The notes under the pieces were generated by a model that was not told the DNA's origin, made no database searches, and was given only the letters and a program-made list of their open reading frames with translations. Both the position numbers and the translations under genes were made by a program. Of a stretch of 64,000 bases of DNA, positions 14,587 through 40,636 are shown in pieces. Every line of letters begins with the position of its first letter. Within the stretch, counting starts at the first letter, position 1. The stretch lies in the IMG/VR virus record IMGVR_UViG_3300009009_000011, positions 1 to 64,000 of that record, one strand, 5' to 3'. Origin of the DNA: a virus.

Positions 14587-16194
14587 TCACGCAGAGTTAG
14601 TCTTACTCTCCTTTTGTTGTTTTTCTGTCTGTTTCTCTTTCTCCTGTTGCTCCTGAAGCAACTTCATATTCTTCTTTATTATTCTTCTTCGTTCACACAG
14701 TTCCGATGGATACTGCTTGGTTATTATGGTCTTATATGTTATACGTGGATACCTGTAAAAAGTTTCAATTTTATCAACTAATTCTACAAATATTTTCTTG
14801 TATATTTTGCCTTCAGAATTCTTCAAATAAGCATACTTCGGTATCTGTATTTTACATTCAACCTTTTCTGCTTGTGTGTCTGCTATTTCCATCTCACCGT
14901 GATATTTTTTACCAGATTTTATTGGTTCATATCTTATATTTTCAACTTGCGGTTCGACTTCAATAATTTGACGTTTAGAATGTCTGTCATATAAAGGAGT
15001 AGAGCGATGTTTAATTGGTTTATCTATACCAACTAATTTCTTGTTAATTGTAACATACTTGAGTGGTAGAACTTTCTTTTGTTCTACTTTTGGAATAAAT
15101 GAATTTGTAACTATTTCATTACCTTCTTCATCTTTTGTAGAAAATGGCTTATCACTCCAATATAAATCTTTTTCTGCTAAGTCTATATTGTGATATTTTT
15201 TCCACTCAACTTTTTTGCAGTAATCATAATGACTACCAGTTGTTACTAATTTAAGGGCTTCGGATTTTGTAATGCGTTCTATTTCCCCTGTATTTAAATC
15301 TTTAACGCATACAAGTTTTTCCTTCTTCTTTTTCTTTACATCTGGTCTGTTAGGTCTGTTAAGTTTTGGTATTTGTTTTTTCTTTTCAGCCGGCTTTGCT
15401 GGATTATCCATCCATGCATATATTTTTACCTTTTTTGTATAGGGTTTACCATCTTTAGTTATAAAGATTTTTTCCCCTTCACCTATAAATACTTGTTTTC
15501 TAGGTGCAATTGGAATTTGATGATTAGGCCATTTACCCGTAGTATGTTGTGTATTTCGTTTTTTATCTTCTACAGATGTTGGTTCCAATAAATATTGCCA
15601 TAAAAAATCATAACCACATGGGGAAGGTTCTGGATCATTTAGCCCTAATAGCCAACGCCAATCTTGATTAAAATCTCTCCACCATTGATTAACTTCATTT
15701 GGTAATTTAATCCATGCTTTATATAGAAAAGTTCCATATATCAAACGTCGTTGCATTACTCCATTAACAATGACTCGATGTTCAAATTCATCACCAACTT
15801 TTGGTAATACAGTTACTCTTAAATGTAATGGTTTCTCTATACTTTTTTTAGATTTAGGGTCATATGATCTGTAATTATAATTAATAGTACGTATTGCATA
15901 ATTACCTGTTTCTTGACCTGGCAGTAAAAATGTTAAAGGTTTTGTCTTAAGCATTTCCTTTAATGTACAAGTTGGTATTGCTAAACCATCTCTATACATT
16001 ACTCTTTCTGCTTGAGTTTCTTTTTTTAACTGTACTTTTAAAGACAAAGGTATTCTAATATGACTCTTGCCTTTCTTTACAGTTTTTATTTTAATACATT
16101 TTCTAGTATCCTTAGTTCTACCACGGATGTTAGAGGTCTTGCATTTCAAAACATGCTTTCTTGCATATTTTTTCTTCTTCTTATATTTTGTCAT
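14587..16194 (-). CDS. Very basic 535-aa hypothetical protein
   Basis: Long K/R-rich ORF on the coding strand of the operon. Confidence 0.7.
   Translation of the reverse strand: MTKYKKKKKYARKHVLKCKTSNIRGRTKDTRKCIKIKTVKKGKSHIRIPLSLKVQLKKETQAERVMYRDGLAIPTCTLKEMLKTKPLTFLLPGQETGNYAIRTINYNYRSYDPKSKKSIEKPLHLRVTVLPKVGDEFEHRVIVNGVMQRRLIYGTFLYKAWIKLPNEVNQWWRDFNQDWRWLLGLNDPEPSPCGYDFLWQYLLEPTSVEDKKRNTQHTTGKWPNHQIPIAPRKQVFIGEGEKIFITKDGKPYTKKVKIYAWMDNPAKPAEKKKQIPKLNRPNRPDVKKKKKEKLVCVKDLNTGEIERITKSEALKLVTTGSHYDYCKKVEWKKYHNIDLAEKDLYWSDKPFSTKDEEGNEIVTNSFIPKVEQKKVLPLKYVTINKKLVGIDKPIKHRSTPLYDRHSKRQIIEVEPQVENIRYEPIKSGKKYHGEMEIADTQAEKVECKIQIPKYAYLKNSEGKIYKKIFVELVDKIETFYRYPRITYKTIITKQYPSELCERRRIIKKNMKLLQEQQEKEKQTEKQQKESKTNSA
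14739..14767 (-). promoter_or_regulatory. ECF-type promoter TGAAAC-N16-CGTATAA, about 185 nt upstream of polB
   Basis: Same spacing and -10 element as the four intergenic copies; lies within the preceding ORF. Confidence 0.55.
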
Positions 16195-16242
16195 AATGAA
16201 TCTTCTTCGTATTATTAATACTCCAATTCAAAATATGTAAAA

Positions 16243-16266
16243 GTAAGGGGGCTATTAACCCCCTAC
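16243..16266 (-). terminator. Hairpin, probable terminator
   Basis: AGGGGG...CCCCCT hairpin with an adjacent U-tract on the - strand. Confidence 0.55.
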
Positions 16267-16268
16267 TC

Positions 16269-16493
16269 CTATCCTACGAAAGGTACTTCTTCTGCTTCAG
16301 ATATAATAAATTGTATATCTGGGGCTAATTCAAGATTATTCAATTTTTCCTGAATCTCTTCTTTTCTTTCAAGTAATTGAGTTTTACGACTTACATAAAA
16401 CTCTTTGTTTAAATATGCTTGAGCTCTGTCTAGTTCATTTACACGAACTTCAATATCAAGTAATTCTTTGCGTGTTTTTTTATTTGTTGACAT
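16269..16493 (-). CDS. Hypothetical coiled-coil protein
   Basis: 74-aa ORF. Confidence 0.6.
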   Translation of the reverse strand: MSTNKKTRKELLDIEVRVNELDRAQAYLNKEFYVSRKTQLLERKEEIQEKLNNLELAPDIQFIISEAEEVPFVG

Positions 16494-16520
16494 TTTGTTA
16501 TGATTTATGTATGATTAATG

Positions 16521-17516
16521 TTAAGCCCAGTCTGTTAATATAATTGGGCAATTCCATGTATATCCACGTTTTTTGTCTAATAATTGGAATTGCATTTGGG
16601 GTGATTCTGGAGTAAATCCATATGCCCTACCCATTTCATTATATCCTATGACTGAACCGTTTATTCTAACTTTATTGCCACATAAATATTGATGCCAGTG
16701 GCCTATCCACGCCATATCAAATGGCAATACTGTGTTTTCTCTATGAATCCATTTCTTTAACGGTACTTCTATGCCGCCAATACCGCCTTGATATTGGAAA
16801 TGATTACCATGTGAGAATTTATTAATTTTACCATATATATTATAATATGTATATGGCGATTCATTAATTACAAATGTAACGTTTGTATACCCTTGTTCTT
16901 TAAAATAACTTTGTAAATGACTATACATAATATATTCGAAAGAAGTTGAAACAGAATTTTTGAATTGGTTCTTTTTTGTTATTCTTCCGTGATTACCTGT
17001 AGTACATATAACTATTATTTCTTTTAAGTTTTCATATTCTGCAAGAGTTTTAATTCCACGAATAAGTAACTCTTCGGCTAATAAAGTACCTTGAATAGGG
17101 GTCAATCTATTTGTTTGTACTAATTCTTCATGTATCCAACCTGATATAAAATCTCCAACTAAATGTAAAACTAAATTGTTAATTTTTATTCCAGATCTTG
17201 TATATACCCTTAACATATAAATTAATCTAGAGAAAAATTTTTCAGTTCTTATTTTAGCTATTTCTGGATTATATTTATTTAACCCATTAGTTATATCAGG
17301 ATTTACTATTTCATCTACATGAAGATCCCCAAACTGTGATATAGCTGTACATTCCTCTTTTAAAGATTTGTTTTCTTTAATAGTGAATTTTTCCAGACTA
17401 GTTACATTTTGAACTGATACAGCCGTGATATTATCTAAAGCTTTTTTTACTTTTTGATATTCTTCATTGATTTTTTGAAGAGCTTTTCTATCTTGTCCTC
17501 TTGTGGTTGATGCCAT
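16521..17516 (-). CDS. Calcineurin-like metallophosphoesterase
   Basis: All five motifs are present: GDLH, GDF, GNHGR, SHG and GHWH. Confidence 0.88.
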   Translation of the reverse strand: MASTTRGQDRKALQKINEEYQKVKKALDNITAVSVQNVTSLEKFTIKENKSLKEECTAISQFGDLHVDEIVNPDITNGLNKYNPEIAKIRTEKFFSRLIYMLRVYTRSGIKINNLVLHLVGDFISGWIHEELVQTNRLTPIQGTLLAEELLIRGIKTLAEYENLKEIIVICTTGNHGRITKKNQFKNSVSTSFEYIMYSHLQSYFKEQGYTNVTFVINESPYTYYNIYGKINKFSHGNHFQYQGGIGGIEVPLKKWIHRENTVLPFDMAWIGHWHQYLCGNKVRINGSVIGYNEMGRAYGFTPESPQMQFQLLDKKRGYTWNCPIILTDWA

Positions 17517-18525: not shown

Positions 18526-18999
18526 CTAAGCAGTATTAAGAATAGCAGAAACTTTATTCCAATAGTCTATTGTTTTAGGTCCCTTACCGTTCCAGTCTTT
18601 TGCAGCCTTTTCAAATGATTTTTGAGATATTTGATTACCTCTCCAATCATGGTCTGTAAAATACAGAAATACTTCTTTAGCCTTATCAAAATCATACATG
18701 TCTTTCAATGTATAATTCTTATTAGTCAATTTGTTATAATGATCAATCCTACATTGTCTAATCTGTAACCCACCAACAGCATTTTCTTTTGAGTTATATG
18801 CTGATGTATCTCTACTAGATTCAATAAAGAATATAGCATCAATTAAAGGATTATAAATAACATAACTTTCTCTCATAACTTCAGATACTGCTATAAAAGC
18901 GGTATTTTGGATACTTTCGTTAAAATTAGACTTGGTATCTGGAGCATATGAAATAAGGTTACTAAATGCTAGAAGGATCACCCATAGCAATTTTTTCAT
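18526..18999 (-). CDS. Lysozyme-like / lytic transglycosylase with signal peptide
   Basis: N-terminal MKKLLWVILLAF; catalytic IES; AVGGLQI; WNG. Confidence 0.8.
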   Translation of the reverse strand: MKKLLWVILLAFSNLISYAPDTKSNFNESIQNTAFIAVSEVMRESYVIYNPLIDAIFFIESSRDTSAYNSKENAVGGLQIRQCRIDHYNKLTNKNYTLKDMYDFDKAKEVFLYFTDHDWRGNQISQKSFEKAAKDWNGKGPKTIDYWNKVSAILNTA

Positions 19000-19051: not shown

Positions 19052-19080
19052 TTATACGTAAAAACTGCGATTTGGTTACA
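19052..19080 (-). promoter_or_regulatory. ECF-type promoter TGTAAC-N16-CGTATAA heading the replication operon
   Basis: Exact motif in an intergenic position, just downstream of a terminator-like hairpin. Confidence 0.75.
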
Positions 19081-19220: not shown

Positions 19221-19778
19221 TTACTCTGTTTTTATTCGTAAACTAATAATTGGCACTACTCTTTGTAGGTCCACTAATTTAGATTTTAACTTTTTCACTT
19301 TGTCTGATAGCCTGTGGCTATTTGTAGCATGTTTCATACCATTCAAAGTTTTGTCAACTTTAAACGATTGATATCTTGCTATTACTGGTTCTTTATAGTC
19401 TGCTACAATGTCAACACTTTCTGGTTCTACTATAATACATGCTTTCATATACTCTTTGTATACAACATCTAATAGATCCATACGGTCGCAATATCTAGTA
19501 AGACTGACGATAGTGGCGACTTTATCATTAAATAAACTTACATATACAGCACGGTCTGCTTTTTTACATATAAGTTTACCTACTTCTATAGGTATATATT
19601 TAATAATTATGTCTGTTACTGGTATCCTTTTTCTGAAAAGTGACCATTTAGATTTTTTCAGAATTACTATACCAGAGCGGGTTACTCTAGCGTAACCCAC
19701 CCGTGGTAATAATGAAACACACATTTCCGCAATTTTCTTACGATTACGGTATGTGAGGTAGATAATATTCTTTAACAT
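19221..19778 (-). CDS. Hypothetical protein
   Basis: 185-aa ORF with a TAATG overlap. Confidence 0.65.
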   Translation of the reverse strand: MLKNIIYLTYRNRKKIAEMCVSLLPRVGYARVTRSGIVILKKSKWSLFRKRIPVTDIIIKYIPIEVGKLICKKADRAVYVSLFNDKVATIVSLTRYCDRMDLLDVVYKEYMKACIIVEPESVDIVADYKEPVIARYQSFKVDKTLNGMKHATNSHRLSDKVKKLKSKLVDLQRVVPIISLRIKTE

Positions 19779-20371
19779 TAAGGAGATAACTTAATAAGTT
19801 CATAGAATCTTACATAGTCTTGCCCCATTAGAGCCGGCCATAATAGAGATGCTACTAATAATATTATTAAATAACATACAAACAACATAAATACATAAGC
19901 AATAGCACTACCATTTAACCTTCTGTATGACTTAACATATAGTGTTATAAGTAAAAACATAGATAAAATAGAACCTACTGCTAAACATGTACTTTGGTTA
20001 TTTTTCTGACGAATAAATTTATTAATCTGTCCAACAGAATAACCTGTACGTTGCTGTAATTGGTCCATTACAGGACCATACCTCCTTTCTTGTAGCTTTG
20101 CTAAAACAGTAATATTATCATTAAAGTTTTTAGCTACTTCTAGAAGTTCTTTATTACTTAACATCTGCAAATTAAATTTCCCTTCCAATACACCATTATT
20201 ATCCGTAATGGTTAATTGTGGATTCTGAAATTGTACATTTACAGTAATGCTGTCTGATGCTGTTTGTAATACCATGTCATCTGTATTATCTTTATCCGGA
20301 ATTTTAGTAAAGGATGGTAAGATAAAGGTAAACAAAAACATCATTGAATAAATCAATAAACGATTTCTCAT
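19778..20371 (-). CDS. Membrane protein (signal peptide plus two C-terminal TM helices)
   Basis: Hydrophobic N-terminus and two hydrophobic C-terminal segments. Confidence 0.7.
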   Translation of the reverse strand: MRNRLLIYSMMFLFTFILPSFTKIPDKDNTDDMVLQTASDSITVNVQFQNPQLTITDNNGVLEGKFNLQMLSNKELLEVAKNFNDNITVLAKLQERRYGPVMDQLQQRTGYSVGQINKFIRQKNNQSTCLAVGSILSMFLLITLYVKSYRRLNGSAIAYVFMLFVCYLIILLVASLLWPALMGQDYVRFYELIKLSP

Positions 20372-20394
20372 GATTGTAATTGATTAATTTTTGA

Positions 20395-20424
20395 TAAAAG
20401 AAAGCGGGCGCCCAACTCCCCGCC
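20395..20424 (-). terminator. Intrinsic terminator
   Basis: On the - strand, GCGGG...CCCGC followed by TTTCTTTT. Confidence 0.6.
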
Positions 20425-20518
20425 ACGTCTCATAAAGTTTTTAGGCCATGACGACCACGGTTTACGAGCTTACCTTTAACCGTACACATTTGGGTTTATT
20501 TCTGGAGTAGCAACCAGA

Positions 20519-20998
20519 TTAAAATCTGTCGTTTTCGAGTTGAATTTTGATGGCTTCTACAGCACGATTTGCTTCATCTGCCATTTCCTGTGCCCTTTCG
20601 AGTTCTATTTCAGTAAGTACTCTTGCTACAGCTCGTGCGTTTTCTTCTGTTGCAAAAAGACATTCTTCGAGTTTAACAACTCGTCTGCCTTCTTTTGGTA
20701 CATCAATAACTCCGTTGATAGTTATACAACCCTCTTTTGCTTTGTTGGTAAGACTGTCTACAACAAAAGACTTGATACCAACAACTTTTGGAGCAAATTC
20801 TTTCTTTTTACCTTTAGCTTTATCGTCCCAGGGCTTAGACTTTAAAGTATAGATATTCTGTTCCAACTTAATGTCCCTTGGGTTTAGGGTATCAATCTCA
20901 AGAGCTAAGTCATCGAGATTAGATGCATTTCTTGCTGCATTTGCAATTTCCTTAACATTTAATGTAATGTTAACTACTTCGTTCTTTTCTTTTGACAT
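20519..20998 (-). CDS. Hypothetical protein
   Basis: 159-aa ORF with natural composition. Confidence 0.7.
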   Translation of the reverse strand: MSKEKNEVVNITLNVKEIANAARNASNLDDLALEIDTLNPRDIKLEQNIYTLKSKPWDDKAKGKKKEFAPKVVGIKSFVVDSLTNKAKEGCITINGVIDVPKEGRRVVKLEECLFATEENARAVARVLTEIELERAQEMADEANRAVEAIKIQLENDRF

Positions 20999-21019
20999 GA
21001 TCGTAAATTTAATTTGATT

Positions 21020-21493
21020 TTACTTGATTTGTTTTTTGACTATATAAAATAATTTTTTGTTTTTTGTTAGATGCTTTGTAATATTGGTATCTCGTATTTC
21101 TTTCTTTGGAAGAATTATTCCAGATTTAATATCTTTATAATCCAGTTCAAGTTCTATCCATAAATTTGTTAAAACTTCTTTTGGATTTCCCCATAAACAT
21201 TTTGGTAACTTGTTTCTACTAACATCCCATATATTTTTATAGGGTCTTAAAAAAGTTTTAGTTTCTTCTGTAGATTTATGAAAAGATAATCTTGGTAACT
21301 GTATTATTTTTTGTTTATTAAATAAATTAAATACCAACGCTTTAACTGTTGAAACTTTATATCTAAGTTTTATCCCTCCAACATAAGCATCTTTCACTAT
21401 GACCTTTTTATCAGCAATTTCTGGTATATCACTTTGTATAAGATCATAACGATAAAAAGTTTGTTTTTGCATGGTACTAAATTTTAATTGCAT
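21020..21493 (-). CDS. Basic hypothetical protein
   Basis: 157-aa ORF directly downstream of the large non-coding region. Confidence 0.65.
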   Translation of the reverse strand: MQLKFSTMQKQTFYRYDLIQSDIPEIADKKVIVKDAYVGGIKLRYKVSTVKALVFNLFNKQKIIQLPRLSFHKSTEETKTFLRPYKNIWDVSRNKLPKCLWGNPKEVLTNLWIELELDYKDIKSGIILPKKEIRDTNITKHLTKNKKLFYIVKKQIK

Positions 21494-23258
21494 TTGTGTT
21501 GAAGCACGAGTAACTAACTTATGAGCACATTGTTATCGTAGACAACATTTTAACCCAAAAATTTTACTCTGATGTTTTTATTTATATTATAAGAAAGTTA
21601 TATTGGTTAAGGATATAACGTATCAATCTTATAATCGATGAACCTTGTGAGCAACTATTAAGTACACTCCAATAGTCATACAAATAGGTTTACGCTAATT
21701 ACTCTGTGTGCTTCGGATGCAAGCGTATTACTTAGTTCCCTTCTTCTTCGCTTAGCTTAGAATGTATCTTTTTTTGTACGGACGATGTCGCCGTTAACAC
21801 AAATATTATGTTTTACTTTTTCAGTATGTTGCTTATTATATGATGTCCCACCCTTATAGATAGTGCTATTTACTCCTGTATTTCACCACAGGCTCTAACT
21901 TTTACTTCGATAAATTCTGAAATATATTGAGATATTTTTTGAAAATAAGTAAATTAAATTGTATATTAATGAAATACACAACAAGTTTCGATTTCACACA
22001 TGTATCTATATGTGATGGTGCATATAATAACGGTAGATTTCACCCTCTACCTCACGTCAATGCTAATGTGACTATAGGTTGTCCTTCTATATACAGATAT
22101 CCTTATGACCATTACGGTTTTTTGGCTATTACATCTGTACACTCCAGAATCTGATATGTAGGCATGGATTTATTAACATTATCCAATTTTCGAGACTTAT
22201 TTTATTGCTTATTTCAACGGTGGATTTAAACCACGAAGTCTGACACTCACTGTGAGCTTATGACATCCCAGTTACGGTGGGCTCCCTTTGAACTTAGATA
22301 TAATATGATACCATTGCATATTATAACTTCTCTTGGGACTACGATTACTTTAAGTTTTATTTAAGTATGGTAAAAATAATGCTATATCTACTACTCACGA
22401 TTGGTCTCTGTTCTAATTAGCCTTTGGCATAATTATTTTCGTCAATTGCGGAACAAAGGGTTTGATCTCGTTCTAATCCATCTATCCATTATAAGATGGG
22501 AGCAGCCGTACTTTTTGTTCTACCGTAAGTACCAACGTCACCTAATTAATTAGGAATCTAAAAATCATCGTTTTCCTCTCTATTATACGTTCTGAATCAC
22601 TATAACGTATACCTCCTCTATCGTTACCAGTCAAATGCACTGGTGCTTAAATATTTGAGAAAATGAATTCTCAACTTTCCTCCCACATAGCATTGTATCC
22701 TAATTTTTAGCATTTCATCGGTAACCTTAACAGAGTTATTTTTTGACCCTGGGAATTCCACCCATTGCGTTACTCATTATGTTATATAACTTCGTTCCTA
22801 TACATAAGGTTATCTCAAACCTTGTGGTTTCTCCCATGTCTTACGACACTTCTAACTTTCGGTCTTTAGTTAGCTAACTGTATTAAACTCCTCACCATAT
22901 AACTTGTTTTCTAATAGACAGGTTTTCCCTAATTGTATCAGAATTAGTTTTACGTATCGGGTATACAATCTAGACACATTCTCCATGCATGTTTCGAAAT
23001 ATGCTAGTAAATTGTAGTGACCTCTGTCTTACTCTGTTGACATTCTAACTCAAAGCGAATGCATCCACGGTACTATCGGGTGCAATAAACTTTGTTAAAG
23101 CGGCTATGGCTAAGAGAGAATGAATTACTTCTTTTATAGTTATCATTGTTTAATGCACCACTTTCTGCTTTGTGTTCGGGTTTTCACCACAGTTATTAAA
23201 GGTTTACTCCTACTGGGGTTAATAGCAAATCGCAGCTATCTACTAAACGCAAATAACA
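21494..23258 (-). ncRNA. Candidate giant structured non-coding RNA (one or two RNAs)
   Basis: 1.75 kb with no - strand ORF in the track, inside a densely coding - strand block. It has many short hairpins with GNRA or T-loop-like loops on the - strand, repeated modules and long-range complementarity. Confidence 0.65.
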
Positions 23259-29460: not shown

Positions 29461-29509
29461 ATTTGATTTATTTATACGTTGATTACAGAATAACTATTTG
29501 TACAGTATA

Positions 29510-29785: not shown

Positions 29786-29790
29786 TGTGA

Positions 29791-30300: not shown

Positions 30301-30460
30301 TTTTCCTTTGTGTTAAACAATGAAATTTTATTCTTTGTAATGGGGTAGTTTCAATAAAAATGTATTCATAACCATCATTACTACGACGGCAGAAAAATAT
30401 ACCAGGTTTATTGCCTGCTTCTTTTTCAACAGATTCAATTTGTTTATCTATTCTGTTCAT
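30293..30460 (-). CDS. Small hypothetical protein (55 aa, not in ORF track)
   Basis: MNRIDKQIES...RKNE overlaps both neighbours. Confidence 0.5.
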   Translation of the reverse strand: MNRIDKQIESVEKEAGNKPGIFFCRRSNDGYEYIFIETTPLQRIKFHCLTQRKNE

Positions 30461-30672
30461 GTAGATATTATATATGTTGCGACAAAACTAACTATAAAAC
30501 ACAACAAACTTACCATGGCTATAAGTATGCAAAAGTCTGTTACTTTTTTTATAGCATGTATATAATTTGCTGATATTAGTCTATTTTCTATAATACTTGA
30601 ATAATGTAATCTAAGTATAGTAAAAAGCATAACAAATACTATTGTTACAATAAGTGATATTAATATAGTCAT
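30457..30672 (-). CDS. Small two-TM membrane protein immediately downstream of the ECF sigma gene
   Basis: Two hydrophobic segments. Confidence 0.6.
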   Translation of the reverse strand: MTILISLIVTIVFVMLFTILRLHYSSIIENRLISANYIHAIKKVTDFCILIAMVSLLCFIVSFVATYIIST

Positions 30673-30674
30673 GA

Positions 30675-31229: not shown

Positions 31230-31467
31230 ATATTAAATCTATTATTTTATCTACTAAAATATTTGGTAAATATTTTTTTAATAGCTTTAATGTTGCAGCT
31301 CTGTTAAGTGTTGGAGCATCATCTAATGGACAATCATATGGAAATTTATTAGTATTATCACAATTACCATTAAAGTTTTTGGAATGAATACATTTGAAAT
31401 ACTCACTAGTTGGTGGCACATCTTCTCTACGATATGCACACGCTGCTGGACTTAATATTGTTTTCAT
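31222..31467 (-). CDS. Small Cys-rich protein
   Basis: C-x-H...C...FP-xx-CPL motif. Confidence 0.6.
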   Translation of the reverse strand: MKTILSPAACAYRREDVPPTSEYFKCIHSKNFNGNCDNTNKFPYDCPLDDAPTLNRAATLKLLKKYLPNILVDKIIDLIYA

Positions 31468-31469
31468 AA

Positions 31470-31784
31470 TTATTTAGTTTTAAAATAACCACATGTTACA
31501 CCTATGCAATCTAATGGAGCATCTGGTTCATTACAACTATAAATACCTTTTTTATCATAATATCTACAATCCTTACGATTACGTCTTTTTGGTATTGTTA
31601 CAGTCATTTCACCATCTCTCCAACGATTACGTCTTGTTCTTATTATACCATCTTGTAATGGGCAACTAAAGGGAAAAGCATCATAATGACAAGATATCCT
31701 TAAACCTTCAGGATGTGTACAGTTGCAGCCAACATGAACTAGTACTTTATAACCACATTCTCTTGTATTATTAATTAGTTTCAT
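31470..31784 (-). CDS. Small Cys-rich protein
   Basis: CTHP...C...FPFSCPL plus a second Cys cluster. Confidence 0.6.
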   Translation of the reverse strand: MKLINNTRECGYKVLVHVGCNCTHPEGLRISCHYDAFPFSCPLQDGIIRTRRNRWRDGEMTVTIPKRRNRKDCRYYDKKGIYSCNEPDAPLDCIGVTCGYFKTK

Positions 31785-32164
31785 AGTATTAGTTTTAGTG
31801 CTTCAATTAAACCTTGTTCAAGTGCTTCTTCATATGTATTATATCTAAGTGACTTAATATTACGAATATATTTACTTGTTTTATAAGTATTATCTACAAT
31901 ATCACAAGCAAAAGTTTTGTCTGAATAAGGATGAAGGAACATATGAATGTCATGTATTTCTCTTAACCATTTCTGAAGTAGAGATTGAGTAGGTGCTTCA
32001 TAAACAAACCTCTGCACGAAATTATTTGTGTGTAGAGTTATTTCATTATTCAATATATGAATGTCTGATAAATGATTATTTCTATAATCACATATACTTC
32101 CATTTACAAACCCCTTTTCTTTAGCTAATTTAGCTGTCTCAAATGAGATTAATTGATCTGTCAT
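31781..32164 (-). CDS. Conserved Bacteroidota-phage hypothetical protein
   Basis: ISFETAKLAKEKGF, APTQSLLQKWLRE and TYEEALE motifs. Confidence 0.75.
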   Translation of the reverse strand: MTDQLISFETAKLAKEKGFVNGSICDYRNNHLSDIHILNNEITLHTNNFVQRFVYEAPTQSLLQKWLREIHDIHMFLHPYSDKTFACDIVDNTYKTSKYIRNIKSLRYNTYEEALEQGLIEALKLIL

Positions 32165-32754
32165 ACGCCATCAAATTGGGGATTAATAACTTTACAGGTA
32201 TTACAGTTCTCGGAGTTCTGATGTCCACATTCTCTACACTCAAGAGGTAATGGTTCAGGGTTAAAACATCTGGGTTCGTCAAACGGTGCACCTTTATCTT
32301 GATTTGATTTATTTGTTAATGATGTACCATCATAATCAACTACTTGTTCCCATGAACCAATTAAGCAAAAATCATCTTTAAACATTATTGCAATGTTCTC
32401 AGAATGTGCTTGTATAGATTCAAGTATATAGACAGCTTTATTATCAAGTATTTTATATATACTTAATATATTTTCAAGCTCCTTAAAGAATTTTCTAGGT
32501 ATACATATAAGACTACTTATATGTTCGTCTTTATCATATATACCTTTTATCCTAGCAGTATGATATGGGAAATACCCAATTATCATAACACCTAATTGAA
32601 ATGCTGATTTATTACACTTAATAAAATTAAGCTTATTATACCACGATTCTTTGAATATCATGTATTTGATTGTTAATTGATTTAAAAAGAAAAAAGTATA
32701 TCTAGTATTATTTATATTATGGGCTATAGCTTTAGGCTTAACTTGAATAGGCAC
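32161..32754 (-). CDS. Hypothetical protein with C-terminal Cys cluster (start uncertain)
   Basis: CRECGHQNSENCNTC; the annotated GTG start is doubtful. Confidence 0.5.
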   Translation of the reverse strand: MPIQVKPKAIAHNINNTRYTFFFLNQLTIKYMIFKESWYNKLNFIKCNKSAFQLGVMIIGYFPYHTARIKGIYDKDEHISSLICIPRKFFKELENILSIYKILDNKAVYILESIQAHSENIAIMFKDDFCLIGSWEQVVDYDGTSLTNKSNQDKGAPFDEPRCFNPEPLPLECRECGHQNSENCNTCKVINPQFDGV

Positions 32755-32863
32755 TATAGGCAGCTCATATTTATAATACAGGAATTGATATAATCGTATA
32801 TATTATGTAATATTACATACTATAATGATATATATGCAAAACCTTTGTCAATATACTTTTTAG

Positions 32864-32949
32864 TCCCCATAGTAAGACTTGAACTTACACATCCATTACT
32901 GAATAAGGGATTTTAAGTCCCTCTTGTCTACCAATTCCAACATATGGGG
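32864..32949 (-). tRNA. tRNA-Leu(UAA), no encoded CCA
   Basis: Acceptor CCCCATA/TATGGGG plus A73; D arm TTGGAATTGGTAGACAA; anticodon loop CTTAAAA; long variable arm; T arm GTAAG-TTCAAGT-CTTAC. Confidence 0.92.
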
Positions 32950-32954
32950 ATTTT

Positions 32955-33390
32955 ATAACTAGGGTGACATTACTATCACCCTAATCATAATTTCGGCTTT
33001 ACCTTACAAAGTGTCCCATTTGGTTTGCTGTACAACTCAAGCTTTCAAATATTACAAATGTTAATAACTTTAGGGATGTAATATAAAAGCTTGTTTGAGG
33101 TAGGGCAAGGCTAAACAACAGTTTAGTTTCAGAGTATATGTCACAATGAGTGAGAGGTCTGAACTTGCCCTATAGGATAACAAGGGTGTACAGATAATCT
33201 GTAATATTATCTAATTGATATTCAATTATTAATGATAATACCTACGGACTCGGTCCGCTTTACACTACCCTTGTTATAGGAGTACACCATTAGTTATATG
33301 AGTTTGTTACCAATATTGTCAGTATGTAAATGGAATTACCCTAATTACAGAAATCAATTACAATAGTCAGGTGATGCTGTCACCCTTTGG
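32955..33390 (-). ncRNA. Hairpin-rich non-coding leader upstream of the tRNA
   Basis: Several tandem multibranch inverted-repeat units and no ORF. Confidence 0.4.
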
Positions 33391-33402
33391 TATCATATAA
33401 TA

Positions 33403-33576
33403 TTACCTTTTTACTAATGATGTACAAGGTCTTTTTAACACTTGGTTAATATAACCAGATGAATCTAAACATCCAATAATTTTAGATGAGTATATTTTTT
33501 TAGCAAAACGTCTATTCTGGTTCCATAATGTAATATTCCCAGAGCGTTTCATTTTATTTTTTAACTCTTTTAGCAT
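33403..33576 (-). CDS. Small hypothetical protein (probable start 33576; track ORF extends to 33705)
   Basis: The longer ORF overlaps the upstream gene heavily. Confidence 0.45.
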   Translation of the reverse strand: MLKELKNKMKRSGNITLWNQNRRFAKKIYSSKIIGCLDSSGYINQVLKRPCTSLVKR

Positions 33577-33877
33577 ATTTAATTCTTCCGAGTTTAATAT
33601 TACTTCTGGAAGATTTATCCTTGATGTTAATCGAGTCTGTGTTTGGTGTTCTACAACTTTTAATTTTAGTCGTAATGTTTTGTTTTGTGGTTGCATACCA
33701 ATCAAGTGTTGAGGTTAAACATAGAACTAAATAAAATAATGGCCACATTGCACTAAATACCATCATAATTGGTATTGGTAAGTCTTCATGTTGTACAGCA
33801 ATATATACCATTGTTATAACTATTATACTTATGTATAATAGTGTAAATACTGTTGGCCAATTAAATGGATGTATCAT
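33554..33877 (-). CDS. Membrane protein (two TM helices)
   Basis: Two hydrophobic segments with a WP motif. Confidence 0.6.
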   Translation of the reverse strand: MIHPFNWPTVFTLLYISIIVITMVYIAVQHEDLPIPIMMVFSAMWPLFYLVLCLTSTLDWYATTKQNITTKIKSCRTPNTDSINIKDKSSRSNIKLGRIKYAKRVKK

Positions 33878-34101
33878 ATTTTTATATATATTAAGTCCAT
33901 ATTTTTACCAAATACTTTTTTAAAACAAGGATATTTATATTTCTTATTTTCTAATTTTAGGCAATCTGAATTATCCTTAAAATAACAACCTTCACATTTA
34001 TGATGATAAATTTCGTTAATAATACTATTATTATTACAGAGTGCTTTAACTCGCATTAATTTAACACCTTTATATTCATATATCTTATGTATTTTACTCA
34101 T
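33874..34101 (-). CDS. Small Cys-rich phage protein
   Basis: CEGCYF...C...C motif. Confidence 0.65.
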   Translation of the reverse strand: MSKIHKIYEYKGVKLMRVKALCNNNSIINEIYHHKCEGCYFKDNSDCLKLENKKYKYPCFKKVFGKNMDLIYIKI

Positions 34102-34103
34102 GA

Positions 34104-34310
34104 TTATTTCTTTTTAGGTGTAGGACATTCAGAATAAGGATCAGTACCATAATGTTCCCCCATAGTCCAACCACATCTAGCACATATTTCTTTGTTAAAA
34201 TGTGATTTATGATCTGGACCAATATGACGAAAAGAAACGATACCACTCCTATAATAATTACTATTACTATACCGCCTTGGTTTAAATGATTTAAATTGAA
34301 TTTTTGCCAT
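34104..34310 (-). CDS. Small zinc-binding protein (probable start 34310)
   Basis: AATC-ATG start context; CARCG...EH...CP. Confidence 0.55.
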   Translation of the reverse strand: MAKIQFKSFKPRRYSNSNYYRSGIVSFRHIGPDHKSHFNKEICARCGWTMGEHYGTDPYSECPTPKKK

Positions 34311-34388
34311 GATTACAAGTATGAATGGGTTTGATAAACAAAAAAGGGGGAACAAATTATAATATAATTTGTATTGCATATATAAAGT

Positions 34389-34446
34389 AATGTAGAGTGT
34401 AATACTCATGAGGCCCACGACTGCCTAATTTCTCACACTCTACATT
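34389..34446. repeat. 12-bp inverted repeat with internal hairpin
   Basis: AATGTAGAGTGT / ACACTCTACATT. Confidence 0.6.
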
Positions 34447-34479
34447 TGTTGTTATGTTAAATACGCCAAAATGGCCTAA

Positions 34480-35289
34480 TTATGGAAGGTCCATACCTGC
34501 GGCATCTTTGCCGGTATCGTCATCTTTGTCAGTTTCAGGTGGCATACTTACATCTTCAAGGTTTTCAACTTTCCTTTCACTTGCCCCTGCTGTATTTACA
34601 ACGTATGTTACTTCTTCAGCAAGCAGAGGTTCTACACGCTTTTGGTATTGTGCAATAGCCAATGACATGAGTGAAGGAATCTGATGGTCGTATATGAACA
34701 TACGCATTTCCCTCATTACAGTTTTGGATTTTTCACCAAATTTACCTGTACTGATGTCTTTCCTTGCATTTGAAAGAACTTTACCATCAGGTCCTATTAC
34801 ATGATGTCCAGGTACCTGAACAGCTACGAATACCCCCATTACAGGGTTACGCATTTTAAGCCTTGGGTTACCTTCATCATCTTTTTTCATACCTTCAAAC
34901 CATTTTTCCTTTTCTTTTAATCTTTCGATTATGTCAGAGAAGAATTCAGGTTGCTGGTTTTCAAATAAGTTATCAGCCCATGCTTTACGTGGTACAACAA
35001 TGGGTTCATCAGGACTTGTTACAGTCTTGACGTAGTCAGTTTTAACTATCCTGAGATAGTTAGTGTCTCTGAGTGTAGGATTGGCTTTTTTAGCTTCATC
35101 CGAAAGTTTGGTTCTCAGAGTGAATTGATCTTTTTCTACATTATCGCTACTTACTTTCACCTTACCTGTTAAGATGAATTTTGTTTTTTGAGGTATAAGC
35201 GGATGTGCAGCAGGCCCGAATAGGCCAGGATTCAGTTCAATTAGTTTTTGCCGAATTTCAGCTTCGGTGGCTTTTGTTTTTTGTGCCAT
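34480..35289 (-). CDS. Hypothetical protein, possible second ssDNA-binding protein
   Basis: Beta-rich core and an acidic tail ending GMDLP. Confidence 0.55.
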   Translation of the reverse strand: MAQKTKATEAEIRQKLIELNPGLFGPAAHPLIPQKTKFILTGKVKVSSDNVEKDQFTLRTKLSDEAKKANPTLRDTNYLRIVKTDYVKTVTSPDEPIVVPRKAWADNLFENQQPEFFSDIIERLKEKEKWFEGMKKDDEGNPRLKMRNPVMGVFVAVQVPGHHVIGPDGKVLSNARKDISTGKFGEKSKTVMREMRMFIYDHQIPSLMSLAIAQYQKRVEPLLAEEVTYVVNTAGASERKVENLEDVSMPPETDKDDDTGKDAAGMDLP

Positions 35290-35529
35290 AATGTTTTAAA
35301 TAATAGTGAGTTTTTGTGAATTAGCGAATTATATATAGTGGTTATTGTTGTCAATCTATTTCAATGCGTAGACCCTAGTCTTTAAACCGTAGCTTCTACT
35401 CTTTTGTTAGCATCGTGAACTGTTTTGTAATTCAGTTATCACATAACCCTGCAATAGGTTATTGGCTGTTTTTAAGACATTGCATATCTTATTATCAGAC
35501 TTAACTCATCGTCATGAGTGATATTGTTA

Positions 35530-35616
35530 AAAGCCTTGTTATAATAAATAAATTATCAATTTGAAATATGTACACAATTATCCTGTAATTATACAAAGAA
35601 CGCATAACAAGGCTTT
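35530..35616. repeat. 13-bp inverted repeat in a non-coding gap
   Basis: AAAGCCTTGTTAT / ATAACAAGGCTTT. Confidence 0.6.
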
Positions 35617-35622
35617 ATATTA

Positions 35623-35907
35623 TTATTTATTAGATTGCATGGTTAAAACATATACGTCTATTGCAGACTTTAATGATTTAGCCATCATTATCTCTTTAAT
35701 ATCAAACTCTGGGTTTGGATGTTCAGTGTGACCAAATAAGTCACGTTTAGTACCAATCTTCCCAATTATTGTATTTGTTGGGTCATCAATACTGTCAAGT
35801 AAACTTTGAGTTGATACTTCTGTTTCAGGGAATTTAATTTGCCCATAACCAATGATGTTATCATCAACATCTAGTATTGGTGTGTGTATACAATTAATTT
35901 TCCTCAT
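35623..35907 (-). CDS. Hypothetical protein
   Basis: 94-aa ORF. Confidence 0.6.
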   Translation of the reverse strand: MRKINCIHTPILDVDDNIIGYGQIKFPETEVSTQSLLDSIDDPTNTIIGKIGTKRDLFGHTEHPNPEFDIKEIMMAKSLKSAIDVYVLTMQSNK

Positions 35908-36080
35908 GATTTAGATGTTTTTGGTTTGTTATGTATTGTACACAATTTACATTGTGGGCTATTTAAATTCGGCCCCACACATGTTATACAGTCTGCTTTA
36001 TTTGTAGGGTATTCCCTTGACCCAGTCATATATGGTTCAACGTGACCATATCGTAGTTGTTTAATTTGTTGTGGTGTCAT
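35904..36080 (-). CDS. Small Cys-containing protein (58 aa, not in ORF track)
   Basis: MTPQQIKQLR...CITC...CKLC; ATGA overlap; preceded by AATCACGACA. Confidence 0.55.
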   Translation of the reverse strand: MTPQQIKQLRYGHVEPYMTGSREYPTNKADCITCVGPNLNSPQCKLCTIHNKPKTSKS

Positions 36081-36088
36081 TGTCGTGA

Positions 36089-36478
36089 TTATGTTAAAGG
36101 TTTAAATGATGCACATTGTCTTGTTGGTCTTTCAGGGTTACGTAGATATGTATTACAATGGTCTTGATGATCACATTGTAGGCATAGTGTCCCAGATGTA
36201 ATGGTTTTAGGTGGAGTAGAAAGCACAAGTTTAGCTAAACAATTAGGCATATTGTTTTGTATACTATTATATGCTTTAATAGCTAATGATAGTTTTCCAA
36301 CTGAACATATTATATTATTCATATGTTTTATATGAAAAAATATGGTCTCTGTTGTATGACCAAACCTGTTAGTTTGTAAGGTTATAGTCATTTCTATTTT
36401 CTTTTGTTCAGCACTTGATGATGCTATAATATGTTTATATTCACCATCTAATTGACTTGATAATATTGTATGTGCCAT
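36089..36478 (-). CDS. Hypothetical protein with C-terminal Cys cluster
   Basis: CLQCDHQDHC...C. Confidence 0.6.
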   Translation of the reverse strand: MAHTILSSQLDGEYKHIIASSSAEQKKIEMTITLQTNRFGHTTETIFFHIKHMNNIICSVGKLSLAIKAYNSIQNNMPNCLAKLVLSTPPKTITSGTLCLQCDHQDHCNTYLRNPERPTRQCASFKPLT

Positions 36479-36681
36479 TATTTGCGCTTTGACCTTTCTT
36501 CAATACGCATTCTTTGTAAGATACCATTGTCCATTTTTATTATGGAGTTGGCTAATTTTGAGATGGCTGATGCTTTTTCGACAGTTAATTTACCGTCATG
36601 TACTTCTTTTGAATAAGTGATTAAGTCTGATTTGTAATCTCTTAATTCATTTAAATCTGTTGTCGTGATTGGGTTTTTCAT
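36478..36681 (-). CDS. Small helical phage protein
   Basis: 67-aa ORF coupled to the upstream gene. Confidence 0.6.
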   Translation of the reverse strand: MKNPITTTDLNELRDYKSDLITYSKEVHDGKLTVEKASAISKLANSIIKMDNGILQRMRIEERSKRK

Positions 36682-37097
36682 GATTTTTGGTTTTTAATTT
36701 GACGATATAAAGTTAATTGTGCTTTTTTGAGTTCTATTTGTTCTGGAGTTATTGAGTTTTTGTCTAAATGAAGATCATATATTATAGTATGTTTTATATA
36801 ATCTGGTGTTAAAGTGTTTCGTTTTATTTGCTCTCTTTTTATTCTACATCTACGTATTATATCTTTACCTTTTTTTGTTTTTGAGTATTTTTTGTTTTTT
36901 TCTCTTATGTGTTTTTTGTTATTATTTCTCCATATTTTATTTTCTTCTCTTGCACATTCTTTGCATATATTTGTTGGAATGTGATATATATATGTTTTAT
37001 TTGGTCTTTTTGTGGTTACTTTTTGTATACGGAAGTTATTTATTGGCAATTCTTTGCCATTTGAATGTAATGGACCATAACATATTTTAGTTACCAT
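36678..37097 (-). CDS. Basic zinc-finger protein resembling HNH-endonuclease N-termini, without a nuclease domain
   Basis: KIC...H...ICKEC, a K-rich helix and a C-terminal ITPEQIELKK. Confidence 0.6.
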   Translation of the reverse strand: MVTKICYGPLHSNGKELPINNFRIQKVTTKRPNKTYIYHIPTNICKECAREENKIWRNNNKKHIREKNKKYSKTKKGKDIIRRCRIKREQIKRNTLTPDYIKHTIIYDLHLDKNSITPEQIELKKAQLTLYRQIKNQKS

Positions 37098-37393
37098 TGT
37101 CGTGAAGTTTTAGTTATAAAACTAGGGGTTGATGTTGCTAAGCTTTGTCCAATTTCTATTCCGAAGTTGAATAGGTCGGTAGTGTTTAACTCATATAGAG
37201 ATGCTATTATTAAAAAACGATGTATTATTCTTTTTCCTGTAAAGCTTTTTACTCTTTTACTTTTGTGTATGTATAGTTTAATATATGACCAATGTTTTTC
37301 CATTAATTCAATGGTTGGTTGAATTTTACTTTCTCTTGTTCCGGCTGGTATTGGCCAAAAAGCTTGGTCTACATGAGTTTTATACTCTTTCAT
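37091..37393 (-). CDS. Hypothetical protein
   Basis: 100-aa ORF. Confidence 0.6.
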   Translation of the reverse strand: MKEYKTHVDQAFWPIPAGTRESKIQPTIELMEKHWSYIKLYIHKSKRVKSFTGKRIIHRFLIIASLYELNTTDLFNFGIEIGQSLATSTPSFITKTSRQW

Positions 37394-37403
37394 TGTCGTG
37401 ATT

Positions 37404-38057
37404 ATTAATGGTTAATATTACTCAGTTATCAAGCTGAGTCGCACAATTAGTTTATTAAGCTAGGAACTCAATCCGAATATTACATTATTTCAATACTTTA
37501 TTAAATGGAAACCAGGTTCAATGTTAGCTTATTCAACTATACTTCACATACTTATGATTATATATGAAGGCTAATGTTTTTATTATTGAAACATCTTTCA
37601 GCTTACGCTTAGTCGGATGAACATTAGCTGCCCTTGCACAATTTACCTAGATCATTGATATGATTTAATATATGTCCTTTGATTGTGCATGATATTATCA
37701 CCTTATGCTATAATTTAGACTGATAAAGGTGTAGATATTAAAGGCCCCCTAATTATAGCAATATTATAGTCAAGGAGCCAGTTATTTCATTAAATCTAAA
37801 TATTATTTTATTTGTTCCAGTTATATAGTTATGGTCAGACACCTGTAATGGAGCAAATAGGTGAAACTAACTCTAATTTGTGTCTGGTGTGCAGTCTTTG
37901 TATTGAGGATATTGACTGCTTATATAATTTAATATTCAGATAATTATAACCAATGTATTCAATATGATTGATAAACATAGGCTATTAATTTGCTTATTGT
38001 CCTTATTTATGTATCAATGGTATTATAGCGTAAAGAGCAGTTTATTACTGCTCACTA
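37404..38057 (-). other. 650-bp non-coding, hairpin-rich region
   Basis: No ORF of 60 aa or more; many inverted repeats. Confidence 0.5.
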
Positions 38058-38300
38058 TCATCCACCCTTCTTTACTGTGGTTTCAGGCACTAACTCAAAC
38101 CCTATCATCGGTGTACCTGTCTTCTTCTGGTCATATTGGTTAATTCTGACCTTGTGACCATCAATTTCAGCGACTTTCTTGGTCTCTACAAACTGTTCAC
38201 CAAAATGAATATCGCTGATTTCCATCTGTGCGTTGCCTTTGAGTGTGGCTAATGCAGACTCACTAAAGGACTTTTCTGGTTTTGCATAAAAGCTTTTCAT
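38058..38300 (-). CDS. Hypothetical protein, first gene of the leftward arm
   Basis: 80-aa ORF with natural composition. Confidence 0.7.
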   Translation of the reverse strand: MKSFYAKPEKSFSESALATLKGNAQMEISDIHFGEQFVETKKVAEIDGHKVRINQYDQKKTGTPMIGFELVPETTVKKGG

Positions 38301-38548: not shown

Positions 38549-38577
38549 TGTAACCTTTATATTTTTAATACGTATAA
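38549..38577 (+). promoter_or_regulatory. ECF-type promoter TGTAAC-N16-CGTATAA
   Basis: Exact motif just upstream of the first rightward gene. Confidence 0.75.
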
Positions 38578-38599: not shown

Positions 38600-38860
38600 A
38601 TGGTATTTACTAGGGAACAAATAGCAGATTGGGTTAAAGAGATTGATGCCTGTAAAGCAGAAGAAGAAGTGTATGGTAAACCAATAATAATGTGTAGACG
38701 TGGTGGGGTATATGAAACTACTGTTACTTTTGAATGTGAGGAGTGTGAAGAAGTGTTAAGTGTAGAACCAGGGTTAGAGGAAATAAATCATATAGATTGT
38801 AGGTGCCCAACATGTAATACAGTAAGGCCTATAACTACTATATTTTTAAGTTGTGATTAA
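38600..38860 (+). CDS. Zinc-ribbon protein
   Basis: CEEC...CPTC. Confidence 0.65.
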   Translation: MVFTREQIADWVKEIDACKAEEEVYGKPIIMCRRGGVYETTVTFECEECEEVLSVEPGLEEINHIDCRCPTCNTVRPITTIFLSCD

Positions 38861-39397: not shown

Positions 39398-39426
39398 TGC
39401 AACAAAATTGTAACTTGTACGTATAA
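39398..39426 (+). promoter_or_regulatory. ECF-type promoter TGCAAC-N16-CGTATAA
   Basis: Intergenic motif copy. Confidence 0.7.
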
Positions 39427-39713: not shown

Positions 39714-39959
39714 ATGAAAAGTTTGAATAGTGTTCAACAAAATATATTTAATGATTTTTTATTATTAAAGGTTATACAAGATGATAATAATCATAATAAG
39801 TTATGGGCCATAAATATATTATATGAAAGATTTGGTGATCGGGTTTTAGATAAGGGTTTACTGAAACCTATAGCAAAAGAGTTGGGGGTAGCTAGGTATG
39901 TTGTAGTTGATTATATAAAGTATAAGTTAAAAGGGTTACCTCATGGCAAAATTAAGTAA
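39714..39959 (+). CDS. Small HTH-like protein
   Basis: IAKELGVARYVV. Confidence 0.55.
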   Translation: MKSLNSVQQNIFNDFLLLKVIQDDNNHNKLWAINILYERFGDRVLDKGLLKPIAKELGVARYVVVDYIKYKLKGLPHGKIK

Positions 39960-40146
39960 AGCTGAGTTACGTAGGTTAGTTGAGCATGTTGAATCTGTAG
40001 GTTCAGACTTAGACACGTTAGACTTAAGGTCATTAATATGTGACGAGGGGTTGTGTCCTATCGAACATTGCGCTTATTACGGGCCAGGCGAAGTTGAATG
40101 TCCACACTTGACACAAGTGTGTGAGCTGTTAAAAAATGGTAAATGA
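39943..40146 (+). CDS. Small Cys-rich protein
   Basis: 67 aa with five Cys. Confidence 0.55.
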   Translation: MAKLSKAELRRLVEHVESVGSDLDTLDLRSLICDEGLCPIEHCAYYGPGEVECPHLTQVCELLKNGK

Positions 40147-40490
40147 CTGTTATAGACAAGGCAGATGATGGTAAGTTGAGGTGGGACCTTTTACCAGTTG
40201 CCGAAATTGAAGAGCTAGTTAAAGTTATAAACATGGGGGCTGAAAAGTATGCTCCTAATAATTGGCAAAATATGCCAAATGCGACAGACCGACTATATGC
40301 TGCTTTATTGAGGCATTTAGTTGATTGGCGTAAAGGGTCTAAAATAGACCAAGAATCTGGGTTAAATCATTTAGCCCATGTGTTATGTAACGCTTTATTT
40401 TTATTGTGGTTTGACCGTAATAAAGGGGGGAGGTGCAATGATGTGCAAGAAGAAGTGGAACCAAAAGGGATTTATGCTTTTGTAAAGTGA
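40143..40490 (+). CDS. dATP/dGTP diphosphohydrolase-like protein (DUF5664)
   Basis: KADDGKLRWDLLP, GAEKYAPNNW, ALLRH and DQESGLNHLAHVLCN motifs. Confidence 0.85.
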   Translation: MTVIDKADDGKLRWDLLPVAEIEELVKVINMGAEKYAPNNWQNMPNATDRLYAALLRHLVDWRKGSKIDQESGLNHLAHVLCNALFLLWFDRNKGGRCNDVQEEVEPKGIYAFVK

Positions 40491-40550
40491 GACCAAGGGG
40501 TGTAAAAAACCTCTGATTATATATAGCAGGTGTGTAACAACATTCTGTAC

Positions 40551-40586
40551 AAGGCTAGGGCTAAATACTCTAGCCTTTTATTTTTT
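40551..40586 (+). terminator. Intrinsic terminator
   Basis: AAGGCTAG...CTAGCCTT followed by a T-tract, immediately before the next promoter. Confidence 0.75.
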
Positions 40587-40607
40587 ATGAAAATATTTTA
40601 CATTAAT

Positions 40608-40636
40608 TGTAACTTTATTGTAACTTATACGTATAA
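40608..40636 (+). promoter_or_regulatory. ECF-type promoter TGTAAC-N16-CGTATAA
   Basis: Intergenic motif copy directly after a terminator. Confidence 0.75.

Follow-up and report, generated by a model that had tools for sequence, protein, structure and literature searches.

Probable host-type extracytoplasmic function promoters in a crAss-like phage and in its relatives with and without a phage sigma factor

Introduction

The promoters belonging to SigW and SigX, extracytoplasmic function (ECF) sigma factors of Bacillus subtilis, combine a −35 box TGAAAC or TGTAAC with a −10 box CGTA or CGAC across a spacer of 16–17 nt, and the SigW boxes are almost those of a bipartite motif, TGHAAC-N16-CGTATAA, whose five copies (P1–P5) in a virus genome are the subject of this study. 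The genome is the IMG/VR virus record IMGVR_UViG_3300009009_000011 (101,841 bp, referred to as G000), and “the window” denotes its bases 1–64000, the whole stretch of DNA that was analyzed. The original prediction, made from the letters of the window alone, held that this is a crAss-like phage with an ECF sigma gene of its own, and that the phage sigma factor and its promoters form the early-to-late switch of the lineage.

A promoter class of the same kind, SM6, is known from Flavobacterium psychrophilum, where it was defined from transcription start sites and assigned to sigma-ECF; an ECF sigma/anti-sigma operon is among its members (Guerin et al. 2021, PMC9723704). Table S2 of that study contains an SM6 promoter TGTAAC-N16-CGTATAA with a mapped start 6 nt past the box, and an rpoD-proximal start with TGTAAC-N17-CGTATAA upstream (PMC9723704). 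Among crAss-like phages, the handover from virion to host polymerase has been described for phi14:2 (Steigviridae) only, with sigma-A-type promoters. The early transcripts of phi14:2 are made by its virion polymerase, lack a common motif and include the replication module; later genes are read by the host polymerase, and the middle promoters resemble the primary-sigma type (10.1101/2020.03.07.982082). Upstream of the phi14:2 middle genes g070, g075, g108 and g110 we found boxes of the form TTG..TAnnTTTG, which are of the Bacteroidota sigma-A type.

Here we propose that the five sites in G000 are host-type (SM6-class) ECF promoters from which middle and later genes are transcribed, that a host ECF sigma factor can fire them, and that the phage sigma factor is probably a back-up reader. 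We give this reading a probability of roughly 60%. A limited literature search found no published account of phage use of the motif.

Results

Five sharply bounded sites in the phage genome

A pattern search recovered exactly five copies of TGHAAC-N16-CGTATAA in the window, at the positions and on the strands where they had been predicted:

38549–38577, plus strand: P1, TGTAAC-N16-CGTATAA, first of three sites heading the right arm, 23 nt before the open reading frame (ORF) 38600–38860
39398–39426, plus strand: P2, TGCAAC-N16-CGTATAA, with an ORF-free leader of 288 nt and then ORFs 39714–40490 downstream
40608–40636, plus strand: P3, the site with the top weight-matrix score (40.8 bits), heading the ORFs from 40823 onwards
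19052–19080, minus strand: P4, at the head of the replication operon and 53 nt upstream of ORF 18526–18999
14739–14767, minus strand: P5, TGAAAC-N16-CGTATAA, within the 3′ end of ORF 14587–16194, 186 nt upstream of the gene for DNA polymerase, 12682–14553

From shuffled sequences, 0.00 copies are expected for this pattern, and the shorter pattern AAC-N16-CGTATAA retrieved the identical five copies against an expectation of 0.11; an origin of the motif by chance is excluded. The full-genome search that the original prediction had called for returned no sixth copy of TGHAAC-N16-CGTATAA across the remainder of the 101,841 bp. With a position weight matrix derived from 26 sites of the clade and a threshold of 14 bits, the five sites scored 28–41 bits, no other site reached at least 14 bits and shuffles gave none. 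As the matrix matched nothing beyond the five copies, the set of sites is sharply bounded, and the block at 19.2–38.3 kb, with zero sites of at least 14 bits, is free of the motif as had been claimed.

All five sites have a −35 box ending in AAC, a −10 box CGT and a spacer within the 16–17 nt of ECF promoters. In the consensus of the 26 clade sites a T-tract follows the AAC of the −35 box, and TGTAAC, T-tract, 16-nt spacer and CGTA together bear out the earlier assignment to the ECF type. Each copy is oriented in sense to the local coding strand, and four are effectively intergenic, also as predicted; the exception is the intragenic P5, inside ORF 14587–16194. Repeat-motif, bipartite-word and weight-matrix searches revealed no second ECF-like motif in G000, the output of the genome-wide bipartite word search being dominated by noise.

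Relatives keep the sites with and without a sigma gene

A capsid-based scan of IMG/VR yielded five useful relatives of G000, for which length, capsid identity to G000 and number of AAC-N16-CGTATAA copies were as follows:

G001: 101,116 bp, complete with terminal repeats; capsid 73% identical; six copies
G002: 69 kb; capsid 71% identical; five copies
G003: 92 kb; capsid 66% identical; three copies
G004: 44 kb; capsid 91% identical, the closest relative; no copy, with TGTAAC-N15-ACGTA(A/T)TA variants instead
G005: 51 kb; capsid 72% identical; one copy

Sites orthologous to P4 precede the orthologue of ORF 18526–18999 in G001 (90777–90805) and G002 (34177–34205), and sites orthologous to P5 lie inside the orthologue of ORF 14587–16194 ahead of the polymerase gene (G001, 84005–84033; G002, 40359–40387). 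At the head of the right arm, G001–G004 have two to four equivalent sites each. All five relatives, G005 included, thus possess the motif or its variants at orthologous sites. When diverged intergenic regions of G000 and its relatives were compared by blastn, essentially the motif alone aligned: the match of the P2 region to G004 spans the motif only, and the P3 region resembles G001 and G002 in nothing but the motif. The five sites are in sense orientation, just upstream of genes and kept by selection, as promoters should be. The motif is identical across G000 and its relatives, whose virion polymerases share only 27–32% identity. A 19-mer taken from P2/P3 matched unrelated contigs only.

The sigma gene was found in none of G001, G002 and G003 by tblastn or by six-frame searches with PF08281 or PF04542. 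Pfam models detected no sigma factor among the early ORFs of G001, and hhalign comparison of the ORFs of 90–400 aa in G001–G003 with a phage-sigma profile gave a best probability of 8.5%. All three genomes have the entire small-gene block in which the gene resides in G000, without the sigma gene. G004 has both a sigma gene (44% identical to that of G000) and the motif variants, and the −35 boxes of G000 and G004 are identical. Distant complete Suoliviridae (capsid 57% identical) carry a sigma gene in 13 of 14 cases, without the motif. Sigma-less relatives with the motif and sigma-bearing distant Suoliviridae without it show that motif and phage sigma do not travel together. A promoter class private to the phage sigma would occur only alongside it, but this one is present in the sigma-less G001–G003 and in hosts. 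Retention of the motif by relatives lacking the sigma gene had been named at the outset as evidence against a phage-run switch, and it is observed in G001, G002 and G003; since these phages keep the motif at orthologous positions, the claim that the phage sigma and its promoters constitute the early-to-late switch of the lineage is not supported, and the original interpretation holds only in part.

The motif precedes sigma factor genes of Bacteroidota

Among 401 Bacteroidota genomes, a signal emerged only on inspecting the genes downstream of motif matches. In four genomes the exact motif lies 25–50 nt before the gene of a 287-aa RpoD-type primary sigma factor, and three more rpoD genes of the same lineage have TGTAAC-N17-CGTATAA upstream. 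The exact motif also precedes the gene of a 160-aa ECF sigma factor in three genomes and queA in two. Orthologues of the 160-aa sigma factor have TGTAAC-N16/17-CGT 40–85 nt upstream in 11 of 12 cases, an arrangement typical of ECF sigmas that control their own gene, so that this factor appears to be self-controlled. Together with the mapped SM6 starts in F. psychrophilum, the match identifies the phage motif as a known host promoter class of experimentally demonstrated activity. The promoter motif PM2 of B. thetaiotaomicron was considered as a counterpart and seems to be a different motif. As context only, a single-cell study of a lytic phage of B. fragilis reported host ‘sigE’ to be highly expressed early in infection, which is compatible with a role of a host sigma factor.

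A second ECF family, of 200 aa and SigW-like, is ~90% identical among Bacteroidales (loci L098–L177, sigma gene at ~1501–2100). Its gene shares an overlap with the 3′-terminal part of a GT2 glycosyltransferase gene, in many cases has rsmG behind it and belongs to an operon driven by sigma-A-type boxes; no anti-sigma gene was seen beside it in this GT2-sigma-rsmG operon.

Jumbo phages use the same motif

IMG/VR was further scanned for TGTAAC-N15-ACGTATAA, and copies were then counted against a reversed-pattern control. The jumbo-phage contigs G033–G043 contain 12–52 strand-consistent copies per contig, compared with 0 in the control. These motif-rich contigs are fragments of uncultured jumbo phages (~320 kb) and one complete genome, G036, of 321,624 bp. 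Intergenic DNA makes up only 8.5% of G036 but holds 49 of its 58 relaxed matches; the sites lie a median of 28 nt from the next start codon and are concentrated among small genes. Every jumbo-phage fragment of at least 88 kb encodes one or two ECF sigma factors, which are 31–33% identical to that of G000, and some of these sigma genes head promoter arrays. Upstream of one such gene in G036 (185699–186265), the segment 185439–185698 contains a degenerate copy, TGTTAC-N16-GTTTAAT, perhaps a weaker form of this promoter.

The matches between G036 and G000 comprise the sigma factor, ribonucleotide reductase and three lesser ones. With the sigma-less phages, G036 has almost nothing in common: what these relatives share with it is one domain of tail-fibre-like type in G001 and a single weak match of 37 residues, and G002 and G003 share no protein. 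Hence, these phages have no phage-encoded reader of the motif in common. The tail-fibre-like domain (G001, 30445–34368; G036, 304442–308779), which is 34–38% identical to two jumbo-phage proteins, hints at related hosts for G001 and G036.

The phage sigma factor and the block that encodes it

G000 was recognized as crAss-like by the original prediction, and this was confirmed. Its terminase, portal and major capsid proteins have crAss-type PHROG matches (1e-124 to 1e-150), and the capsid protein is 55–61% identical to those of Suoliviridae such as cr118_1. A 4461-aa ORF beyond the window contains DFDID at residue 3058, a motif that is catalytic in the virion polymerase of phi14:2 (10.1101/2020.03.07.982082). 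Crass-type capsid, portal and terminase together with a giant DFDxD virion protein place the genome in the Crassvirales. The sigma gene and its surroundings are:

30675–31229, minus strand: intact ECF sigma ORF, 184 aa, with Pfam Sigma70_r2, Sigma70_r4_2 and Sigma70_ECF
19221–38300, minus strand: small-gene block holding the sigma gene, with no ECF-type site

The ORF matches PF04542 (r2, 8e-14), PF08281 (r4_2, 1e-15) and PF07638 (ECF, 3e-4), and reaches 94 bits with TIGR02937 (sigma70-ECF; cut-off 42.9 bits). Of the sigma regions, r2 and r4 alone are matched and sigma-1.1 and sigma-3 are missing, which is the composition of ECF (group 4) factors. The top NCBIfam match is SigW, below the equivalog cut-offs, and the closest solved homologue is SigW of B. 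subtilis (187 aa; E 1e-28), with which the protein aligns end to end. Both the intactness of this ECF sigma gene and its location inside the motif-free block were correctly predicted.

Sequence identity amounts to 44% with the G004 sigma, 42% with the 200-aa ECF family of Bacteroidota and 28–36% with the sigma factors of other Suoliviridae. The latter are annotated as ‘sigma-W’ in many records, so the phage sigma gene as such has been seen before. Across the clade of phage sigmas, the sigma-2.4 and sigma-4.2 helices are conserved; they are host-ECF-like and of the ordinary ECF kind. ECF sigma genes usually, though not necessarily, have a cognate anti-sigma gene next to them; the flanking ORFs 30457–30672 and 31222–31467 have no Pfam or PHROG match. 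Scanning IMG/VR with the phage sigma protein found nothing, and most of the loci retrieved from metagenomes with an alignment of the phage sigma were bacterial, without enrichment of the motif.

No shared repeat or common early-promoter motif was found in the 19–38 kb block, nor was the host sigma-A −7 box enriched there. By analogy with phi14:2, whose early transcripts likewise lack a common motif, the block is presumed to be early and to be read by the virion polymerase. Conserved proteins of the block, among them those of 1153, 549 and 269 aa, were considered as alternative readers of the sites and gave no informative family or Atlas match.

Surroundings of the sites and further features

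P1–P3 are clustered at the head of the plus-strand arm, in a stretch of no more than 2.1 kb. Transcription from P1 is predicted to start near 38583. The ORF-free leader behind P2 (39427–39713, plus strand) has no Rfam match at gathering scores. The ORFs downstream of P3 include the ribonucleotide reductase gene 42089–44401, and P3 possibly also heads the remainder of the right arm. The extended −10 box of P3, TTATACGTATAA (40625–40636), is a perfect palindrome with CGTATAA legible on both strands, which is probably incidental. The gene behind P5, 12682–14553, matches the PHROG ‘DNA polymerase’ at 7e-140; for its earlier designation as polB there was no Pfam or PDB sequence match, and the PHROG label reads only ‘DNA polymerase’. 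Two hairpins accompany P3 and P4:

40551–40587, plus strand: strong terminator-like hairpin of 10 pairs with a T-run, just upstream of P3
19022–19041, minus strand: leader hairpin of the replication-operon transcript, with the stem kept in G000, G001 and G002 and a differing sequence

Two copies of the motif had been described as directly following terminator-like hairpins. This is accurate for P3 and too strict for P4, whose upstream hairpin is ~85 nt away. The leader hairpin begins ~10–13 nt past the −10 box of P4 and is preceded by a conserved GGGGTA. Its fold energies in G000, G001 and G002 are −11.3, −9.1 and −8.6 kcal/mol, respectively, and the stem changes are compensatory, making it a candidate 5′ leader element.

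Several features of the early block and of distant relatives were noted in passing. The conserved 549-aa protein (23259–24908, minus strand) has a weak, below-cut-off match to AMP-binding (adenylate-forming) enzymes (E 1e-5), and the block further contains a tRNA-Leu with anticodon TAA (32863–32949, minus strand). A 1.77-kb ORF-free gap (21494–23258, minus strand) has syntenic ORF-poor counterparts in G001 (~93.2–95.1 kb), G002 (~30.8–31.8 kb) and G003 (~47.0–48.5 kb). In the right arm of the cr60_1-like genome G025 (e.g. 24.6–29.0 kb), terminase, portal and other late genes are split into short ORFs under table 11; such broken late ORFs of distant Suoliviridae fit a stop-codon reassignment in late genes.

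Discussion

Readers of the five promoters

The promoter reading of the motif is strongly supported. Since the boxes occur before rpoD, queA and an ECF sigma gene of hosts and since sigma-less relatives retain the sites, a host ECF sigma factor must be capable of recognizing them. Activation by such a host factor had been listed in advance as contrary to a phage-run switch, and the identical boxes in host genomes and in the SM6 class make it likely. The phage factor is a likely reader of P1–P5: its conserved, host-like sigma-2.4 and sigma-4.2 helices and the nearly identical SigW boxes suggest that it probably recognizes them. It would be an optional reader, perhaps escaping a host anti-sigma, and not a private switch.

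What the data show are the motif, its retention at orthologous sites, its use by hosts and other phages, and which genomes have sigma genes; promoter activity in the phage, its timing and the acting sigma factor we infer. Bacterial core RNA polymerase with an ECF sigma factor would read P1–P5, with P4 starting the replication operon, P5 the DNA polymerase segment and P1–P3 the head of the right arm including ribonucleotide reductase; the structural genes would perhaps be reached from P1–P3 by read-through. The SigW-like phage sigma would be made from the motif-free block, presumably early, by the virion polymerase, and would most likely read the same boxes as the host ECF sigma. Middle transcription could thus proceed regardless of any sequestration of the host sigma by its anti-sigma.

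Several observations weigh against this reading. Counts of the exact 13-base motif in sets of 5 and 401 Bacteroidota genomes did not exceed the reversed-pattern control. The 160-aa host sigma is only 26–32% identical to the phage sigma, and no AAC-N16-CGT was found within 1.5 kb of the 200-aa family, the closest cellular kin of the phage sigma. As that family has no motif nearby, the choice of the host reader follows from the logic of self-control and from nothing else. The phage sigma could also be aimed at another target.

The evidence bears differently on three other explanations. In a closed phage switch, the virion polymerase would make the phage ECF sigma, and this factor alone would be needed and sufficient for the five promoters. 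Such a switch would account for the sigma gene sitting in the motif-free block, for the pairing of a SigW-like sigma with a motif resembling the SigW promoter, for the joint presence of both in the closest relative G004 (major capsid protein 91% identical), and for the ECF sigmas of all many-copy jumbo phages, some of them heading promoter arrays. We nevertheless regard it as unlikely, because the complete G001 as well as G002 and G003 keep the motif positions while lacking the sigma by five methods, the motif is a host promoter class, the −35 boxes of G000 and G004 are the same despite sigmas that are 44% identical, and 13 of 14 complete distant Suoliviridae combine a sigma with the lack of the motif.

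The opposite view, in which a host ECF sigma is the sole reader and the phage sigma serves other phage or host promoters or titrates a host anti-sigma, would agree with the retention of the motif in sigma-less relatives, with the fast evolution of the phage sigma (44% identity between G000 and G004, compared with 91% for the capsid) and with the motif-bearing host sigma gene belonging to a family other than the closest kin of the phage sigma. The conserved DNA-reading helices of the phage sigma clade, which are of the ordinary ECF kind, the lack of a second ECF-like motif in G000 and the almost identical boxes read by SigW, its nearest solved relative, make this view more doubtful still. That the motif is a promoter of the virion RNA polymerase, or no promoter at all (an operator, packaging or replication signal), is very improbable. 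The early, virion-read replication module of phi14:2 would favor a virion-polymerase promoter, as sites in G000 head replication genes, but the motif precedes bacterial rpoD and ECF sigma genes and mapped bacterial starts, it occurs in jumbo phages that have nearly no proteins in common with the sigma-less relatives, the early transcripts of phi14:2 lack a common motif, and the motif is the same in phages whose virion polymerases are 27–32% identical.

Implications for Bacteroidota phages

If the sites are host-type ECF promoters with the phage sigma as a back-up reader, the lineage of G000 appears to rely on host-type ECF promoters for the virion-to-host polymerase handover, with or without a sigma factor of its own. 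This would explain the repeated gain and loss of sigma genes among Suoliviridae-like phages. The analysis provides concrete testable promoters, predicted starts and a candidate host factor, the 160-aa ECF sigma that looks self-controlled. As a marker of a host regulon and also of several groups of phages, the motif may be of use in assigning uncultured phages to hosts. Tentatively, the host ECF promoter class that drives rpoD could be a shared ‘language’ of unrelated Bacteroidota phages, namely a crAss-like clade and jumbo phages, with the phage sigmas as freely gained and lost copies that escape the anti-sigma, a possibility we hold with considerable doubt. If true, a sigma-bearing phage would fire the class whatever the stress state of the cell, and its sigma-less relatives would need the infection to free the host sigma.

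Relation to described sigma factors and phage cascades

The SM6 promoter class of F. psychrophilum has the same boxes and spacing as the phage sites, TGTAAC-N16/17-CGTATAA. The SM6 promoters are chromosomal and induced by nutrient stress, whereas the phage sites precede replication and right-arm genes, are much stricter (13 invariant bases) and have predicted starts. With SigW and SigX of B. subtilis, the phage system shares the promoter architecture, and SigW is the closest solved homologue of the phage sigma. It differs from SigW in that it belongs to another phylum, that the phage match remains below the equivalog cut-offs and that no RsiW/PrsW-type partner was seen beside the phage gene. 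The jumbo phages of ~320 kb resemble G000 in having the identical motif in strand-consistent, intergenic positions and in encoding ECF sigmas, but they are unrelated to it and carry tens of copies before small genes, compared with five in G000.

The cascades of SPO1 (gp28 and gp33/34), T4 (gp55) and phiEco32 (gp36) likewise comprise an early small sigma gene and a strict consensus of later genes that is missing from the early block. Unlike in these cascades, the promoter class of G000 is host-native and close relatives manage without a phage sigma, so the phage sigma does not define the switch, and a virion polymerase injected with the genome presumably carries out the first stage.

G000 and phi14:2 are both crAss-like and both encode a virion polymerase with DFDID. 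The middle promoters of phi14:2 belong to the sigma-A type and its replication genes are early, whereas the replication genes of G000 carry ECF-type promoters. The sigma-A-type box TAnnTTTG is not enriched in the intergenic DNA of G000, which makes up 10% of the genome and contains 10 of the 168 copies. Given this lack of enrichment and the lack of any other repeated upstream motif, the lineage of G000 seems to have swapped sigma-A-type middle promoters for promoters of the ECF type.

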